From Candidatus Parvarchaeota archaeon (GTDB taxonomy: Archaea; Nanobdellota; Nanobdellia; WJKC01), in contig JAUWZX010000001.1 in assembly GCA_030615175.1 (NCBI GenBank), forward strand, positions 1 to 62,565: 62,565 nt of DNA, read 5' to 3'. Position 1 is the first letter of the stretch; each line of letters starts with the position of its first letter. The notes beneath the pieces were generated by a model, which was not told where the DNA came from, did no database searches, and worked only from the letters and a program-made list of their open reading frames with translations. The position numbers and the translations under genes are program-made. Below are positions 278 through 6,976 of this stretch, one piece after another.

Positions 278-712
278 ATGGCTAAGAAAAACAACTATGG
301 TTTAATAATAATACTATTCGTGTTAGTGACGAGCACGCTTGGAGTATTCCAATTCATTAGTGTAAAGAAATTCACTGTGAACCTCGTGGTGGCAATGGAT
401 TCAGGAGTCCCTTACCAAGAAGTTGTAACTGTTGATGATAACTCTACAGCGTTAATGGCTTTAAGCAAGTTAATGAATGTGCAAGTCGAGAATGAGTCAA
501 TAAAGTGTGTTGGGAATTTATGTAATGAAGGAAATAATTCATGGATTACAATGACTCAGGGAGGTATAATGATTAATCCTTACACTTACAAGTTGTCAAA
601 TGATGAATTAATTTACTTCATGTACTTCACTAATGGGACTAACCCATTAACAGACACTAATAAGTCAGAGAAGGATAGGGAAGCACTCATGGAATTACTA
701 AAATTATCTTAG
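278..712 (+). CDS. Membrane-anchored hypothetical protein, possibly DUF4430-like
   Basis: N-terminal TM helix; 'STALMAL...CVGNLCNEGNNSW...YKLSNDELIYF' resembles the DUF4430 pattern. Confidence 0.5.
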   Translation: MAKKNNYGLIIILFVLVTSTLGVFQFISVKKFTVNLVVAMDSGVPYQEVVTVDDNSTALMALSKLMNVQVENESIKCVGNLCNEGNNSWITMTQGGIMINPYTYKLSNDELIYFMYFTNGTNPLTDTNKSEKDREALMELLKLS

Positions 713-744
713 AAATACTTAAAAACGCGTAATTACACTTTAAA

Positions 745-817
745 TAGTGCGGATGATGTGGTGAATACCCCCTGACTAAATAAAGGGATGATGAGCTGGG
801 TAGCTACTGACGCACTA
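745..817 (+). ncRNA. Box C/D 2'-O-methylation guide sRNA
   Basis: Terminal stem TAGTGCG(745-751)/CGCACTA(811-817); C box ATGATGT 753-759; D' CTGA 772-775; C' ATGATGA 788-794; D CTGA 807-810; two 12-nt guides; TATA-like TACTTAAAAA at 716-725. Confidence 0.9.
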
Positions 818-846
818 CTAATTAAACAATTCTTTTAGTCAAGGTT

Positions 847-1152
847 TTATTTTAGGAATTCTAGTTTCTTAATCCTCTTGCCCTTGGCCTGCACGTTCTG
901 CTTACCGCACTGCTTGCACTTGTACCTGAGGTCTAATTTCCTGTTTGACTTAGCATTCCTTTTCCTGTCCTTAGGCGGTTTCTTACTGTAGCGCCCCCTA
1001 TCACCATGCCCTTTAGCAACTTTATCCTTTCTTAAGCGCTGACCTGCCTTCATTGCACCTCTCTTGCCTCCCCTGCCAGCCTGGATTACTTCCTGCTCAG
1101 TCTGCACCCTGCACTTAGGGCAATAACGTTTAATGACTTTAGGCATCTTCAT
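847..1152 (-). CDS. rpl44e: 50S ribosomal protein L44e (eL42)
   Basis: MKMPK..RYCPKC N-terminus, LRYKCKQCGK zinc ribbon, very basic; SD-like GGTGA upstream. Confidence 0.95.
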   Translation of the reverse strand: MKMPKVIKRYCPKCRVQTEQEVIQAGRGGKRGAMKAGQRLRKDKVAKGHGDRGRYSKKPPKDRKRNAKSNRKLDLRYKCKQCGKQNVQAKGKRIKKLEFLK

Positions 1153-1242
1153 AAATTAATCACCATTATCTCTTTCCGTCAACGATTTCTCTTCAGAGAA
1201 AGGGTTGGGGCAGTAACGTTTAATGACTTTAGGCATCTTCAT
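1115..1242 (-). repeat. 38-nt direct repeat (1115-1152 and 1205-1242) of the rpl44e 5' end
   Basis: ATGAAGATGCCTAAAGTCATTAAACGTTA[T/C]TGCCC[T/C]AA, 36/38 identical, 90 nt apart. Confidence 0.95.
1156..1242 (-). CDS. Putative 28-aa upstream ORF MKMPKVIKRYCPNPFSEEKSLTERDNGD
   Basis: Manual translation; TATA-like TTTAAAAG (1274-1267) lies 24 nt upstream of its ATG; stop is 3 nt before the rpl44e ATG. Confidence 0.45.
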   Translation of the reverse strand: MKMPKVIKRYCPNPFSEEKSLTERDNGD

Positions 1243-1276
1243 AGAGAACAAGGAACTAATAAAAGACTTTTAAAGT

Positions 1277-2338
1277 TTACCCTTCAACTCCTAAGAATTC
1301 AAGCATTAAATAATAAGTATAGTCAGAGCAGTTATTGTAAAGGAATCTGATTAATGAAGTGTTAACTATTGCATAAGACTTGCTTACCGAGTCATTGCAG
1401 TAAATTATCTTTCCATTATCCATCATTTTTATTACAGGACTCGTGTTCTCGCAGTCAAACCATTCACTTCTAATGGTTGGGAGGTAATTAATGGTTTTAA
1501 CGCTTAACAGGCTTGAATTAGATATAAAACTCTCATTCGTGTAATGGTCGCATGTCTTTAAGAAAGCGTCTGTTATGTTTTCTTCATAAAAGTCAAGTCC
1601 AGCCATTGACACTGCCTCGCTGCCGTAATAATAATCGCATAAATTATAGCCATTACTGAATAGTAATACTGGGAAATCCTTAACTGGTTCTGAAGCATTA
1701 GTTATGATGAAAATATTAACTTCCCCTTCACTTGAAGCTTCTGATATTAATTCATTTAATGCATCAGTTAAGTCATCAATTAATGACATCCTTTGTTCAA
1801 TGCTTAAGTAATCATAATTATTGTTTAAGCATTCTGCAAAATCACTTAATATTCTTTCAATTAAAGTAAGCCATTCCTGTTCAGTATAATTAGAATCCTG
1901 AGTAATGGAGATTATTGATGAGTTACACATTAAAAGTGACTCGCTTAACACTTCATCAATAACTTCACCTGACAGTGATTCATTTAATGCAAAGTCTAAC
2001 TCAGTAATTAATGACATCACTTGCTCATCGCTTAAGTCATAATTCCTGTCCAAGCAGTCTTCAGTATAACTTAGCATAAAACTAATTAAGTCATCAACTT
2101 CCTCTTCAGTGTAATTAAAGCCTTCAGGTATGAAGAATAATGATGAATTGCACTTTGAAGGCAGTCCTTTTATTGAATCATCAAAAGATTCAATTATTGA
2201 TTCTTCGGAAATATCTAGGTAAGTCAGTTCTGGCGTCGTGCTTGTTTCTAATAGGAGCATGACATATGCCATCACTAACACTACTGATACAATTATTAGA
2301 CTCACTGATGCCACTTTTAATACGTTCACTGTCTTCAT
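1277..2338 (-). CDS. Membrane-anchored acidic hypothetical protein with internal duplication
   Basis: N-terminal TM; two ~52-aa repeats; many NxS/T sequons; ATGA-type overlap with upstream gene. Confidence 0.75.
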   Translation of the reverse strand: MKTVNVLKVASVSLIIVSVVLVMAYVMLLLETSTTPELTYLDISEESIIESFDDSIKGLPSKCNSSLFFIPEGFNYTEEEVDDLISFMLSYTEDCLDRNYDLSDEQVMSLITELDFALNESLSGEVIDEVLSESLLMCNSSIISITQDSNYTEQEWLTLIERILSDFAECLNNNYDYLSIEQRMSLIDDLTDALNELISEASSEGEVNIFIITNASEPVKDFPVLLFSNGYNLCDYYYGSEAVSMAGLDFYEENITDAFLKTCDHYTNESFISNSSLLSVKTINYLPTIRSEWFDCENTSPVIKMMDNGKIIYCNDSVSKSYAIVNTSLIRFLYNNCSDYTYYLMLEFLGVEG

Positions 2339-4044
2339 GGGTAGTCACTCCACTGCAGTAAAGCGTAATCATTACTCCTGTCCTTACTCCCTGAAATCCA
2401 TGTATGCTTTACAGTAGTGCGGCTGTGGCATGTCCAAGACCAGACGTCTGTGCAGTAAACCCAGTTATGACATTTTTTATAATAATAACAAGTAGAAAAG
2501 ACTTTTTCACATCCATTTATTACTACTGCAAGATCGCAATCCCACACCCAGCACGATTGAGTCTTTTGCTGGCATCCATACGTGCTTCCCTTCAAGCCCT
2601 TGCATACTTTATCAACAACTTTTGTATCAGTATAGTAAACGTTTACGCATCCTCCAGGAGTTGGAACTCCTGCCTCTGGCTTTGCATCAAATGAAGTAAT
2701 GCCTTCGCGCCCCATGCAGTCACTATCAGTCTTGCATGCTGTCCATTCCCATCCAGCGCACTCGTTTTGGCTTCCTATAAAGCAGTAAGGCGCTTTCCAG
2801 AAATTCAAAAGCCAGTCCTCAGGGCAGTCACTGTTACTACAGCACTCAGTGCAACTGGTACTGCATTCACTAAGCAGGTTGCAAGAGCCGGCAGGAAGGG
2901 TAGCTGTCTGAAGAGTAGCGCACCAACAATACTCAAATGACCCATAAGGAGGTATTGGTATGGTTTCGCAATATACCAGATTAGGGTCGCCTGGAAAACA
3001 TATTTCGTATGGAGCTCCTAATATTGTGCCTGTTTTTTCCACGTCAGTGCATTCATAGTGTTCCCAATTCTTGCCAACACAAGTAGGAGAGTGAGAGTAT
3101 TTAGTCTCGCAGTCAGAGGCAGCAATGCATTCAATACCTTCATGCCATACGCCATCCTTGCAAATGCCTGTTGGAGCAGTAGGAGGTCCTATTGAGAATA
3201 AATCAGGTGAACCATCAATTGTTCCTAAGTCACAGCAGTTATTCTCCCCTCCCTCACCAACCCATGTCCCGCCTGCAGTCTCGCAAGCGCACTGGGAGTC
3301 ATCCTCGTCAGTGTATACCTGGTCATTACAACAGATGTGCTCTAAGTCATGCCATGCTTCGCCAGCATCGTCGCCGCAGCACGCGTCAATACTGCTAACC
3401 CATGTACTGTCATAATATTCCTCCATCTCGCAGCAGTCAATATCATTATCAGCGTAATCAGTGAATAATGAATAGTCAACATCAAACCCTTCCCAATCCT
3501 CATAACAGAAGTCATCAGCAAAACCTTTAGAAAAAGGACCTAAAGGCGCGGCATCATAATCAAAACAGTAACCTCCACACGTGGGTCTATCACAACCCTG
3601 GTCCACCCAAGGAGTGTACGAACAAGTGCATGAAGAAGTGCATGCAATTGCAGTCCTTGTATACAAGTTTTCTGAAGTATATCCAAGGTCCTTACCGCAC
3701 GCACTCGTGTAAGTGCAGTCACCAACAGCATCACAAGCAGCACCACAAGACTGGGAGCACGTCGTAGTGCAACCGCTGCCAGAACAAGTGTAAGAACCGC
3801 AGTCCGCTAACTTGCAATAAGCATACCAAAACACTTCTTCATCGCCCAGGAACGCTTTTGTTCTTTTACAAACACCACTATATCTGTAACATGCATTACT
3901 ACAACCAGTACATTGAGTGCAATCCCATCCAGACTTTTGAGTTGTGGAACACTCTGCATCCGGTTCCTTATTACAAGCCCATACTGAAAATCCAGGAGTT
4001 AAACTTAAGAGAATCACTGCGAGCATTAATAATAATTTTTTCAT
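2335..4044 (-). CDS. Secreted cysteine-rich surface protein
   Basis: Likely start ATG 4044 (MKKLLLMLAVILL signal peptide, GGTGGT upstream); very high Cys content, CCGDD motif. Confidence 0.8.
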   Translation of the reverse strand: MKKLLLMLAVILLSLTPGFSVWACNKEPDAECSTTQKSGWDCTQCTGCSNACYRYSGVCKRTKAFLGDEEVFWYAYCKLADCGSYTCSGSGCTTTCSQSCGAACDAVGDCTYTSACGKDLGYTSENLYTRTAIACTSSCTCSYTPWVDQGCDRPTCGGYCFDYDAAPLGPFSKGFADDFCYEDWEGFDVDYSLFTDYADNDIDCCEMEEYYDSTWVSSIDACCGDDAGEAWHDLEHICCNDQVYTDEDDSQCACETAGGTWVGEGGENNCCDLGTIDGSPDLFSIGPPTAPTGICKDGVWHEGIECIAASDCETKYSHSPTCVGKNWEHYECTDVEKTGTILGAPYEICFPGDPNLVYCETIPIPPYGSFEYCWCATLQTATLPAGSCNLLSECSTSCTECCSNSDCPEDWLLNFWKAPYCFIGSQNECAGWEWTACKTDSDCMGREGITSFDAKPEAGVPTPGGCVNVYYTDTKVVDKVCKGLKGSTYGCQQKTQSCWVWDCDLAVVINGCEKVFSTCYYYKKCHNWVYCTDVWSWTCHSRTTVKHTWISGSKDRSNDYALLQWSDYP

Positions 4045-4048
4045 CTTC

Positions 4049-6976
4049 TTAATTACCACCTGTGCAATAATAATCAATCTTTTGGGCTTCATAATTCTTT
4101 GCTTCACTGGCAGGTCTTACGCGGGCAGCTATGTAAATCCCTGTAGAGGGTCCGCAGTCATAAAAAGTGCCTCCATAACAAAACTTGTTTTCACCAATCA
4201 TGAAGTCATCATCATCACTGTCTACGCTGTCATCATTAGTTGAGTTCCCGTCATATGTGGTGTCATCACCGCAGCATAAGCCATTCCCGTCAGGTTCAAA
4301 CCAAGCCGCTCCATAAACATCAACGCAGCATGCTTCACTAACATCGCCGTCAGCGCAGTACTCAATAGTCACCCTCATACAATTATTACTGAAATCAAAA
4401 TCATCACTGTAAGGAGTCCTGACACAAGCAATGAGTCCGTGAGAATGTTTAAGGAATTCCACAAAAGGAGGAGCCACTAAGCCCTCTCCCAGGAGAGCAT
4501 CGTATAATTCCTCTCCAGACAGCAACTCTAAATCACTAATTAATTCAGTGCTGACAACAAAATCACTTAATTCAACAGAAACATATTCTTCAGGGAATTT
4601 ATAAAACGGGGGAGACTCAAGAGCCTCCTGGTTATAATAATACGCATAACCTTCTTCAGGAAAAACTAAAGAGTCATTATTAACATCAAAGAAAACGTCA
4701 ATGATTAATTCATCATTAAAGGCATTGCCATCACTTGTTCTTGAAATCCATAATTCATCAATCGTTAGCGTTTTATCTGAACTATAAATGTAATCATCAT
4801 TAAGTTCGCTCTCATAATTAGATAATAATAATGAGTCAGCCCTTAAATTATTAATGAATGGCCTACAGTCAGTGAATTCACTAATGTCCTCGCAATCACT
4901 GCAAGAACTGTTAAAGTAAGGCGTCTCACCCAAATCTGTTTCATCAACTCCTTTAAAAGTGATTTCAGTAACGTTAATTTTATTAATGTCAACCCACCAC
5001 TTAACTCCAGGGTACTTATCCTCAAGCATGCTTCCAACATTATGAAAACGGCTCTTCAATAATTCAGTAAGCATTGGAATGAATGATGTGCGAACAGCGT
5101 AATCACAGGTAGGAGGAGGAATACCTATACTTGTATAAGTAATATCGGGCTCTCCATCAGGGTCAGGGATTGAATCATCCATATCATTAAAAGAGTATTC
5201 ATAAGAGCCGGAAAGTATCTCATCACTTAACTCAGGAAAGTAAGAGCGATCCCAGCGCTGATCAACGAATAAGCTGAAGAAAGTTCCGTAACAATTAATG
5301 CAGGGAGTGTAAGACAAGTTAAGGCATGGATTCAAAGAGTAAGGCAGTGCATGGCACTTACCGCAATTATAAAGTAATTTACCCCAAGAAGTTACTGGTT
5401 CAATGGCAGGACCAGCAATGTAAGGATTGCTTGGGTCAATGTAATCCGCATAAGTTTCAGGATTGCACTCCTCTATGTATTCATCCTCGCACGTGACGCC
5501 AATGCCTGGCAGCCCCTTAACACCCCACTCTGGAAGAGTTAATGATTCGTACAGCCCGCTGGAATCATTGCCTTCATTAACACTTTTGTAATTGTAAACG
5601 TCATCACTGAAGTACTGGCAAACCTCTTTCAGAATATAAAAACACATTGGCTTTAAAGTAAAGCCTTCACCAAAAACTTCCTCCCAATCAGCATAATCCT
5701 CAATATTAAACCCGTAATAATTATACTTAGAATCATAAGGAGTGTTATTAAGGTACTCCTCGTACTTCATGTTGCTGCTGCCCTCAATCGGGACTTTAAC
5801 CCTAAGTTCAAAAAAAGAATGATAAAGCAATACTTCATTAACAATGCTTTCAATAACTGAATTCTTAACAGCGTCAATAGAAGCAGTCCTGAAGCGGGCG
5901 AAGTCGCTGTCAAAAGCATCAAAAATGTAAGTTGAGCCCTTATAATTAATATCAGCGTAATCACCCTTGAACTTAACAGTAAAGAAAGGAACGTTTAACG
6001 GGAAGAAATTAATGAAAATAGTGTTATTGCCGAAACCCTCAATCTCAGGAGTTACAGGGTTATCTTCAATTAATGTTTTATAATCAACAGGCGCGAAGTT
6101 AATTTTAACGTCATCAGCAGTGTAAGTTCCAAAACTAGCAGGATTGCGTATCGAAGTTAATGCAAAGTCATCAATTGTCTTAAAATTCTGGTCAACGAAC
6201 TCCTCAAACGTATTCTTAATAAAGTAAGGGTCAGGATAACAGGTTTCCTGACTAATAACTCTCTGTAAAATCATTAAAGGAGGATTATCCGAGTGGAAAT
6301 CATTTAAATTAATGCCTGCAGGGTAATCAGTCTTAAAGTCAGGGTCATTGCAGTAAGGAGTGCCATTATCCGTTAAGAGTGCTTCAGGAATTGAGTGAGT
6401 GCATAAGCCGTCTGGAGATGAGTTATCGCTGAGAATGATTAAGTGATTGCCGCCAACTAAGTGGAATGGAGCTGGGTCTGGACTGCCATTCACCGGCTCA
6501 CCGTTAACAAGGAACCAGCCAATATCCGTTTCCTTACCATCACCGATTTGAAGCATGTAATCAGCCTCGCGCACATTGTCAAAGCGGTAAGCAACCCAGT
6601 CATCGCCAGGCACTTCATTAAAACGGTAGCCAATGTAATTATAATACTCTTCAGTATCCTTAGCAGATTTCCAGTAAGGAATGTACTTATCAAGCTGTAA
6701 AGTGCTTAAGTTCATTGAAACACCGCAAGGACTGACGCCGTGAGGCCATAATCCAATACTGCCTAAGTGAATTCCTGCGTAATCAGCGCCAACCTGCCGC
6801 TCCTGTTTCTGAATACTTCTAACTGCTTGAACAAGGTCAGCAACCTTTAAGACTTCCTGCGCCTTTAACACCTGCGCTGAATTATCAACCAAGCGGTCGC
6901 TGACAATGCCTATAAGCGTTAACAACACGAATAAGATGCTGATAAACCATAAAATTGAATACTGACCTCTCCTCAT
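4049..6976 (-). CDS. Large acidic surface protein with class III (pilin-like) signal peptide
   Basis: MRRGQ/YSILWF followed by hydrophobic helix; Cys-rich patches, C-terminal CCGDD. Confidence 0.75.
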   Translation of the reverse strand: MRRGQYSILWFISILFVLLTLIGIVSDRLVDNSAQVLKAQEVLKVADLVQAVRSIQKQERQVGADYAGIHLGSIGLWPHGVSPCGVSMNLSTLQLDKYIPYWKSAKDTEEYYNYIGYRFNEVPGDDWVAYRFDNVREADYMLQIGDGKETDIGWFLVNGEPVNGSPDPAPFHLVGGNHLIILSDNSSPDGLCTHSIPEALLTDNGTPYCNDPDFKTDYPAGINLNDFHSDNPPLMILQRVISQETCYPDPYFIKNTFEEFVDQNFKTIDDFALTSIRNPASFGTYTADDVKINFAPVDYKTLIEDNPVTPEIEGFGNNTIFINFFPLNVPFFTVKFKGDYADINYKGSTYIFDAFDSDFARFRTASIDAVKNSVIESIVNEVLLYHSFFELRVKVPIEGSSNMKYEEYLNNTPYDSKYNYYGFNIEDYADWEEVFGEGFTLKPMCFYILKEVCQYFSDDVYNYKSVNEGNDSSGLYESLTLPEWGVKGLPGIGVTCEDEYIEECNPETYADYIDPSNPYIAGPAIEPVTSWGKLLYNCGKCHALPYSLNPCLNLSYTPCINCYGTFFSLFVDQRWDRSYFPELSDEILSGSYEYSFNDMDDSIPDPDGEPDITYTSIGIPPPTCDYAVRTSFIPMLTELLKSRFHNVGSMLEDKYPGVKWWVDINKINVTEITFKGVDETDLGETPYFNSSCSDCEDISEFTDCRPFINNLRADSLLLSNYESELNDDYIYSSDKTLTIDELWISRTSDGNAFNDELIIDVFFDVNNDSLVFPEEGYAYYYNQEALESPPFYKFPEEYVSVELSDFVVSTELISDLELLSGEELYDALLGEGLVAPPFVEFLKHSHGLIACVRTPYSDDFDFSNNCMRVTIEYCADGDVSEACCVDVYGAAWFEPDGNGLCCGDDTTYDGNSTNDDSVDSDDDDFMIGENKFCYGGTFYDCGPSTGIYIAARVRPASEAKNYEAQKIDYYCTGGN

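Follow-up and report, generated by a model that had tools for sequence, protein, structure and literature searches.

Doubled start of the ribosomal protein gene rpl44e in a small archaeal genome: most likely the scar of a short non-coding mobile element

A MITE is a short, non-autonomous insert with a duplicated target, the duplication being short and of fixed length, and insertion with a long target duplication is likewise known. In bacteria, Holder et al. 2015 (PMC4666352), as far as accessible, describe the repeats called PIT, BoxC or TMECO as multi-copy sequences of about 35-40 nt with a pyrimidine arm, a purine arm and a reverse-Hoogsteen purine strand, patchy between strains, in the case of TMECO always intergenic, and without a transposase link, and they detected no stable triplex of the motif in vivo. 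REP/REPIN sequences are presented, in the excerpts available, as tiny non-autonomous palindromic DNA with a stem mismatch, tandem clusters and excision alleles in populations (Bertels and Rainey 2011, PMC3116915). The attL and attR sites of archaeal integrase elements in tRNA genes duplicate the gene end, the whole gene stays, and filled and empty alleles occur in one population, according to the portion of the text at hand (Sugahara et al. 2012, PMC3293823). Transposed tRNA introns have been described in Thermoproteales (Fujishima et al. 2010, via PMC4090602), and the arrival of archaeal tRNA introns is called open in the consulted sections of two sources (10.64898/2026.10.13.758758; PMC4090602). 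In this study we describe a doubled start of the archaeal gene rpl44e, whose upstream frame most likely marks the insertion of a small non-coding mobile element into codon 12 of a leaderless gene.

The window, i.e., the whole stretch of 62,565 nt analysed here, is C5:1-62565 of a 1.015-Mb, five-contig archaeal assembly (G000) that is 87% complete and, judged by its size and gene content, may come from a small archaeon of the DPANN type. The minus-strand ORF 1152-847 was identified as Ribosomal_L44 (PF00935, E 2e-08), and this rpl44e gene (eL42/L44e; 847-1152) is intact, encodes 101 aa and is single-copy, with one tblastn match across the whole assembly. An earlier note on this DNA had reported a near-identical copy of the gene start 90 nt upstream with two differences, and this was confirmed: the minus-strand stretches 1205-1243 and 1115-1153 are identical at 37 of 39 nt, their starts are spaced by 90, and they differ by TAC/TAT and CCC/CCT. 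The upstream frame (1242-1156), the hairpin (1186-1201), the GGTGA (1164-1160) and the stop 3 nt before the ATG were also present as described. This putatively translated frame of 28 codons (minus strand) is made up of the old start, the element and the filler, reads MKMPKVIKRYCP followed by 16 codons, and is separated from the real ATG at 1152 by 3 nt (TTT). On the minus strand, the upstream duplicate copy (1208-1243) is the original gene start, cut inside codon 12 by a 39-nt element (1169-1207) that comprises a hairpin, a basal stem and a mirror purine strand. The element is followed by a 15-nt filler (1154-1168), which holds the Shine-Dalgarno (SD) sequence GGTGAT (1164-1159) and the stop of the upstream frame (1158-1156), and by the 36-nt downstream duplicate copy (1118-1153), which is the working start of rpl44e. 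The duplication proper covers 36 nt (1208-1243 against 1118-1153) with one difference, and the last three positions of the 39-nt repeat, CAA, are the first bases of the inserted element. Both differences had been taken as synonymous changes, and both exist, but CCC/CCT sits on the first base of the element and is therefore weak evidence of synonymous constraint. The 16 codons had been regarded as unrelated sequence, but a repeat family accounts for their first 39 nt. The best genomic match of the 15-nt filler was 17/18 nt (E 0.2) within a coding region, and an Rfam search of 1115-1274 gave no match down to E 5.

Other features of the surroundings were also observed. Positions 745-817 on the plus strand contain a C/D box guide-RNA-like sequence with two box C/D pairs and a terminal stem, which scores under the Rfam gathering threshold and is conserved and syntenic in G002, a genome of the same family (75% over 75 nt). 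Directly behind the rpl44e stop, at window position 840, a 22-nt insertion is found in the contigs of two sequencing runs (X1 and X3), part of it a repeat of the final stretch of the C/D RNA-like sequence; a third run (X4) has deletions nearby. Upstream of rpl44e, an acidic ORF of 353 aa without a Pfam match above the cut-off contains an internal repeat of about 75 codons (1741-1848 and 1969-2073; spacing 225-228 nt, 76% identity). Two large ORFs of 590 aa (cysteine-rich) and 975 aa, located on the minus strand at 2335-6976, have hydrophobic N-termini and no Pfam match. The third-position T/A skew flips beside the single cdc6 gene (118.6 kb), and C5 at about 100-120 kb is a likely replication origin.

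The upstream copy keeps the native TATA spacing and the downstream copy has a new SD. The TATA-like box TTTAAAA (1268-1274, minus strand) starts 32 nt 5' of the upstream ATG, which is the modal spacing in G000; among 729 long ORFs of this genome, 172 boxes of this kind were counted that start 30-33 nt ahead of the ATG, and an SD-like word was found in 93 of the 729. The upstream copy thus has native, leaderless-type spacing, which agrees with the earlier proposal that the box is placed for leaderless initiation there. Since the duplicate excludes the promoter, the rebuilt rpl44e needs its own ribosome entry, and this is supplied by the filler, whose GGTGAT matches the 16S 3' end GGATCACCTCC found in the assembly and whose GGTGA lies 7 nt from the ATG. 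Re-initiation is plausible because the upstream frame ends on the filler SD. Judged from the layout, translational coupling would plausibly be a by-product, and we consider the chances evenly balanced that the upstream frame is translated and aids re-initiation. The RNA fold of the rpl44e leader was no better than that of shuffled sequences.

The element at rpl44e consists, from 5' to 3', of a basal stem strand CAAC (1207-1204), an unpaired C, a pyrimidine arm (1202-1196), the loop TGAA, a purine arm (1191-1185), a junction C, GTTG (1183-1180), the linker ACG and the mirror purine strand GAAAGAGA at 1176-1169, with a mirror length of 8. One geometry is common to the family, i.e., a 4-bp basal stem, a 1x1 junction, a pyrimidine/purine hairpin, a 3-nt linker and a mirror purine strand. 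A scan that was free in stem, loop and linker size recovered this geometry in all 12 hits of G000 and, as compared to 0 of 11 in the reversed control, in 99 of 120 fetched loci, which had been picked by a pattern of the same spacing. The arm and the third strand covary beyond the letters of the pattern: among 146 non-redundant copies, six viral loci included, C→G was found in 31 of 42 cases and T→A in 169 of 190, whereas shuffling the third strands 2000 times gave a mean of 12.6 and a maximum of 24 for C→G. When distinct arm/strand combinations were counted, the numbers were 23/31 and 80/95; P-values for this covariation are overstated because the copies are related. The junction base can pair with the last linker base in 194 of 215 copies (C/G 163, G/C 31), the C/G class being largely fixed by the first search pattern, and the basal stem varies by compensatory change across copies. 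In the stems of 168 distinct copies, G·T pairs are nearly absent (one on the element strand and seven on the other), and A·C mismatches, equivalent to G·U on the complementary strand, exceed G·T by 7 to 1. The folding tool gives the hairpin only, and this hairpin alone was no more stable than shuffled sequences as RNA (z -0.80) and modestly more stable as DNA (z -1.26 and -2.05). Purine-motif triplexes are generally a structure of DNA rather than of RNA, and the complementary strand could form a pyrimidine-motif triplex. The parts of the element follow the order that the accessible part of PMC4666352 gives for class II intrastrand triplexes, and the triplex fold, as read from the letters, is probably the structure that is recognised. 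The purine arm of the rpl44e copy ends in T (1185) where the family has G, and with its basal pair broken at this base the copy may no longer be mobile.

The spacer element is a member of a multi-copy family in G000. A 12-mer of the spacer occurs exactly nine times in this genome, each time ending a hairpin; the strict motif gave 13 copies and 0 in the reversed control, and the structure-based scan gave 22 sites against 6 in the reversed control. About 20 copies are counted for G000, i.e., the 22 sites minus three with unpaired junction bases plus the rpl44e copy, which the structure-based scan missed owing to T1185. Eleven of the G000 copies lie in or adjoin tRNA genes and one lies in the end of the 5S rRNA, as judged by eye. 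The strict motif was present in 6 and the sister motif in 11 of 41 genomes, 13 genomes in all. In the species-genome collection, the strict motif was found in at least 115 loci; among the matches listed, 78 of 80 titles were archaeal and two bacterial, and the archaeal carriers belonged to DPANN groups, Thermoplasmatota, Methanophagales, Methanocellales and Altiarchaeota. Six viral matches to the strict motif showed only the 4-nt mirror fixed by the pattern and were not counted as support, and ARAGORN found no tRNA in these six loci. Without deleting the element, ARAGORN detected a tRNA in 1 of 10 element loci tested, and Rfam gave no family for the element in eight other loci at gathering score. 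In 68 of 108 viral loci (L300-L407), many of them giant-virus assemblies with tandem arrays, the sister motif had all parts of the geometry; the viral mirror is trivial because of homopolymer arms, but the basal stem lies outside the search pattern. The viral sister motif extends the range of hosts and speaks for a route not tied to one lineage; convergence is possible. Five of the viral sister-motif contigs are related and phage-like. No published description of the element was found in literature searches that covered few subscription journals and no bioRxiv supplements, and in which motif strings matched unrelated papers.

Tandem same-strand pairs of elements are present in the family. Sister-subfamily elements occupy apparently the same site in two genera (C1:110762 in G000 and L288 in G002); those at L288 are in tandem, and the site is either an old insertion or a hot spot. 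In G000 there are two copies of a tRNA-Pro gene, each with an identical element intron, 5.6 kb apart (L265, C5:583.4-589.1 kb), with an L37ae-like gene, a tyrosyl-tRNA synthetase-like gene and small ORFs in between as judged by eye; no integrase or mobiliser was recognised by eye in these 5.6 kb. Two or three different element-headed inserts per tRNA gene, in the D-arm, anticodon loop and T-loop, were seen at L031, L037, L038 and L042 (G012 and G028), and an apparent RNase P RNA gene with an insert was seen by eye at L142.

It is highly probable that the element inserted with duplication of its target. Among 171 cellular copies with full flanks, the rpl44e copy excluded, 24 have a 14-80-nt duplication ending at most 5 nt from the first base of the element (17 exactly there), and the second copy of the duplicate recurs after 0-138 nt of filler. 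Seven of the 24 have 1-5 extra bases ahead of the element. No long duplication was found at the other 147, duplications below 13 nt being unscored. Duplications abutting the 3' edge were found at 5 of the 171 copies. Random sites gave a duplication in 0 of 302 cases. The same layout was found in G000 at the 5S rRNA end (duplicate of 37 nt), at the end of an ABC-permease gene (19 nt), at the start of tRNA-Val (12 nt) and at C1:110762 (15 nt), and at another protein gene start, L101, where the SD is doubled within a 34-nt duplicate. In every inspected case the duplicate extends to a gene end, and a whole gene remains. When the element and its tail were deleted, a tRNA was restored at 38 of 146 copies (32 sense, 6 antisense) and at no random site; this test misses multi-intron genes. 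Insertions antisense at 5S rRNA, tRNA and gene 3' ends also occur. Two G000 tRNA sites showed a 4-bp central helix with 5-6-bp flanks in a non-specific bulge-helix-bulge (BHB) scan, which passed 15 of 17 sites including non-tRNA sites. That the filler arises in all cases by fold-back copying of the target was rejected, with inverted matches of at least 7 nt in 23 of 146 copies and about 14 in swapped controls. A target consensus was likewise rejected, as nothing was found beyond an A-rich last base (72/146), which tRNA loops explain. At C1:96307 and C5:597393 of G000, a second, GC-rich hairpin family (GGGGG/CCCCC stem) is located between direct repeats of 32 and 24 nt, and long target duplication is thus not restricted to the triplex element.

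The insertion was further examined in four sequencing runs (X1-X4) from three studies, in which contigs only were compared over window positions 500-2000; X2 had no coverage of the locus. X3 provides one 907-nt contig over 500-1379 through both copies, with 22 other letters, i.e., from another strain. The X1 contig skips exactly 90 nt (1123 to 1214), and an X4 contig also skips exactly 90 nt (1114 to 1205), both with long flanks. A 157-nt contig of X4 matches 1108-1153 with two codons changed and continues into a variant element with an A-only third strand behind the same ATGGTGATTAAT (30/110 loose letters shown); its SD-to-ATG distance differs by one base from that of the window. Empty alleles were hence present in 2 of the 4 runs, and the filled (X3, X4) and empty (X1, X4) contigs demonstrate that both alleles coexist in close strains. 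The 90 nt had been suggested to be an excisable segment, and at the DNA level they are indeed present or absent in these contigs. As placed by the aligner, the single copy of X1 would read like the downstream copy and that of X4 at least partly like the upstream copy, and these joints fit an ancestral empty allele and recombinational reversion alike.

Among 40 relatives searched for rpl44e, 39 matched and 29 loci were examined; the duplicate start was absent from all 29, the gene start and the upstream 300 nt sharing at most 12 nt. The best 80 of 238 metagenomic matches, 74 of them with at least 150 nt upstream, showed no duplicate start (shared stretch at most 10 nt) and no element. The earlier note had asked about a conserved upstream ORF in relatives, and these two sets showed no conserved leader. 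G002, of the same family and syntenic, has a single rpl44e start, preceded by a TATA box at equal spacing, and its C/D RNA-like stretch behind rpl44e matches at E 1.4e-10. No rpl44e match was found in G001, of the same genus and 86% complete. At L029, a half copy of the sister motif was seen by eye about 80 nt upstream of rpl44e, with no duplicate start.

These comparisons bear directly on the other explanations of the locus. An assembly artefact merging two strains might be suspected from the empty alleles and from the position of the window at the start of a contig; however, the X3 contig of another strain passes both copies, and a second run has the filled junction. Misassembly is refuted by this independent contig, and its residual probability is negligible. 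As for the empty contigs, De Bruijn assembly might in principle fold two repeat copies into one, but the exact common stretch of the copies is 30 nt, and X3 was assembled across it. Another reading is a leader peptide that evolved for autoregulation, sensing for instance zinc or ribosomes, and mimics the N-terminus of L44e; the frame copies the N-terminus as far as the first Cys, and the promoter spacing suits leaderless translation. Such a peptide is very improbable and largely refuted by the empty alleles: the frame is not conserved in the 29 related genomes and 80 metagenomic loci examined and is polymorphic within the population, its break point and inserted sequence both match a generic element, one of the 'synonymous' differences is the element's first base, and insertions of this element give tRNA genes, 5S rRNA and other protein genes the layout seen at rpl44e. 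Just as little credit can be given to the idea that the tRNA splicing endonuclease excises the 90 nt from the mRNA as an intron. Members of the family do form tRNA introns at other sites, and losing the 90 nt restores the gene exactly, but the 90-nt BHB registers have only 1-bp flanking helices, the direct repeats cannot pair, and the downstream SD makes splicing unnecessary; the relaxed scan, non-specific as noted above, yielded a weak 36-nt candidate that does not restore the gene. Excision by RNA splicing is thus unsupported, in contrast to the presence or absence of the segment in DNA. The insertion might instead have been domesticated, with the upstream frame and the new SD selected as a coupling relay or tuner of rpl44e output, and the filled allele persisting for this reason. 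This is suggested by the stop 3 nt before the ATG, by the SD beneath the last codons of the upstream frame, and by the diverged X4 filled contig, which keeps ATGGTGATTAAT despite two changed gene codons and a different third strand. It is nevertheless unlikely, as close strains live without the insert and none was found in the 29 related genomes or the best 80 of 238 metagenomic loci; the one-base change between SD and ATG in the diverged contig means that the frame is perhaps not kept, any viable filled allele needs an SD so that its retention does not imply regulation, and 90 has a one-in-three chance of being a multiple of 3.

A different question is in which form the unit moves. An excised element-headed tRNA intron could be reverse-spliced, ligated, or used to prime or template DNA synthesis and then be fixed in the genome, with the complementary strand possibly forming a pyrimidine-motif RNA triplex. 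The strong tie to structured-RNA genes, the sense bias of 32 against 6, the tRNA endonuclease in G000, the extra bases before the element in 7 of 24 duplications, as the 5' end of an intron would give, and the excess of A·C over G·T all speak for such an RNA route. On the other hand, RVT_1 was not found in G000 and does not co-occur with the element, insertions lie antisense at 5S rRNA, tRNA and gene 3' ends, wobble pairs are rare on both strands, and survival by splicing predicts the same sense bias. We regard movement as RNA as possible but rather doubtful, and a DNA rather than an RNA intermediate is somewhat favoured. The reading as an insertion scar, which the earlier note had listed as one of several, is supported by the repeat-family element, the target-duplication footprint and the filled and empty alleles.

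For the insertion itself, we propose that the folded element, most likely single-stranded DNA in a class II purine-motif triplex, would be joined via its 5' end to a free 3' end of the target, and that its ragged other end would be resolved by re-copying 14-80 nt of the target. Insertions in essential genes would survive if the copy covers the whole gene end, as at rpl44e, 5S rRNA and tRNA ends, or alternatively if the insert can be spliced, as for tRNA introns. The rpl44e transcript would still begin at the old promoter and thereby gain a leader of about 90 nt, with a leaderless start at the old ATG; ribosomes from this ATG would stop 3 nt before the real ATG, over the new SD, and rpl44e would be translated from this SD and possibly also by re-initiation. 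Recombination between the repeats could remove the 90 nt again. With respect to the enzymes, no Y1 HUH transposase, RVT_1 or Cas1 was found in G000 (87% complete), neither Y1 (2 of 13 element-positive against 5 of 28 other genomes) nor RVT_1 (1 of 13 against 1 of 28) co-occurs with the element, and no recurrent mobility protein was found within 1.5 kb of copies (3 kb for the six viral loci). A tRNA endonuclease and a FEN1-type nuclease, both expected in any archaeon, are present in G000. For the idea of Okazaki priming, the nascent lagging strand was predicted with the origin set near cdc6 at C5:118.6 kb, and 10 of 13 assignable copies were on the non-predicted strand, in a small sample with an uncertain terminus and confounding by tRNA orientation. 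We tentatively suggest, as a speculative generalisation, a class of 30-60-nt triplex-folding mobile DNA without a dedicated transposase or reverse transcriptase, which would be spread by shared archaeal/eukaryote-type replication or repair enzymes, leave a sharp 5' joint and a long one-sided duplication, be a main source of non-canonical tRNA introns, and reversibly provide leaderless protein genes with a leader and a throw-away upstream frame.

The interest of the locus lies in the element and in the filled and empty alleles, not in the regulation of rpl44e. Here an intron-type core is found outside a tRNA, with its insertion footprint intact and both alleles in the same population, and the insertion event is thereby open to study at a defined junction. 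The 39-nt element with its three layers of covariation may serve as a compact test object for the triplex and as bait for the enzyme. For annotation, a short upstream frame or a doubled gene start in a small archaeal genome may be the scar of an insertion and need not be a regulatory leader.

As compared to the systems described at the outset, the element behaves as a miniature non-autonomous element would and has the construction of bacterial class II triplex repeats, but it lacks defining features of TMECO, REP/REPIN, MITE and integrase elements. It shares with PIT/BoxC/TMECO the size, the copy number, the two arms and third strand, the patchy distribution and the missing transposase link; its arms, however, are A/T-rich T/C and A/G runs instead of a G/C-rich consensus, its second loop has 8 nt holding a strand of the basal stem instead of 3 nt, and the 4-bp basal stem with the junction C is its own. 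It occurs within genes (38 of 146 copies in tRNA genes; rpl44e), and the long one-sided target duplication and intron formation are not described for TMECO in the accessible text of PMC4666352, where 'duplication' and 'tRNA' have 0 occurrences. The Thermoproteales introns were compared by description only, from the available part of PMC4090602; unlike these, the core of the element is also found in protein genes, at gene ends, in antisense and with target duplications. A multi-copy short imperfect palindrome, as in REP/REPIN, is seen here too (13 strict copies, 0 in the reversed control), together with the tandem clusters and the alleles of excision, but no Y1/RAYT was found in G000 or co-occurring, and the mirror third strand, the long variable duplications and the strong tie to tRNA genes set the element apart from REP/REPIN-RAYT as far as PMC3116915 was accessible. 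The duplicated gene end and the filled and empty alleles recall the integrase elements of the consulted part of PMC3293823; in contrast to those, the rpl44e insert has 54 nt, no integrase lies on it or recurs beside it, and the duplication length and target vary and include protein genes. Unlike a MITE, finally, the element has no terminal inverted repeats at both ends but a sharp 5' edge and a variable filler of 0-138 nt on the other side, and in place of a short fixed duplication it shows 14-80 nt where scored and none in 147 of 171 copies.
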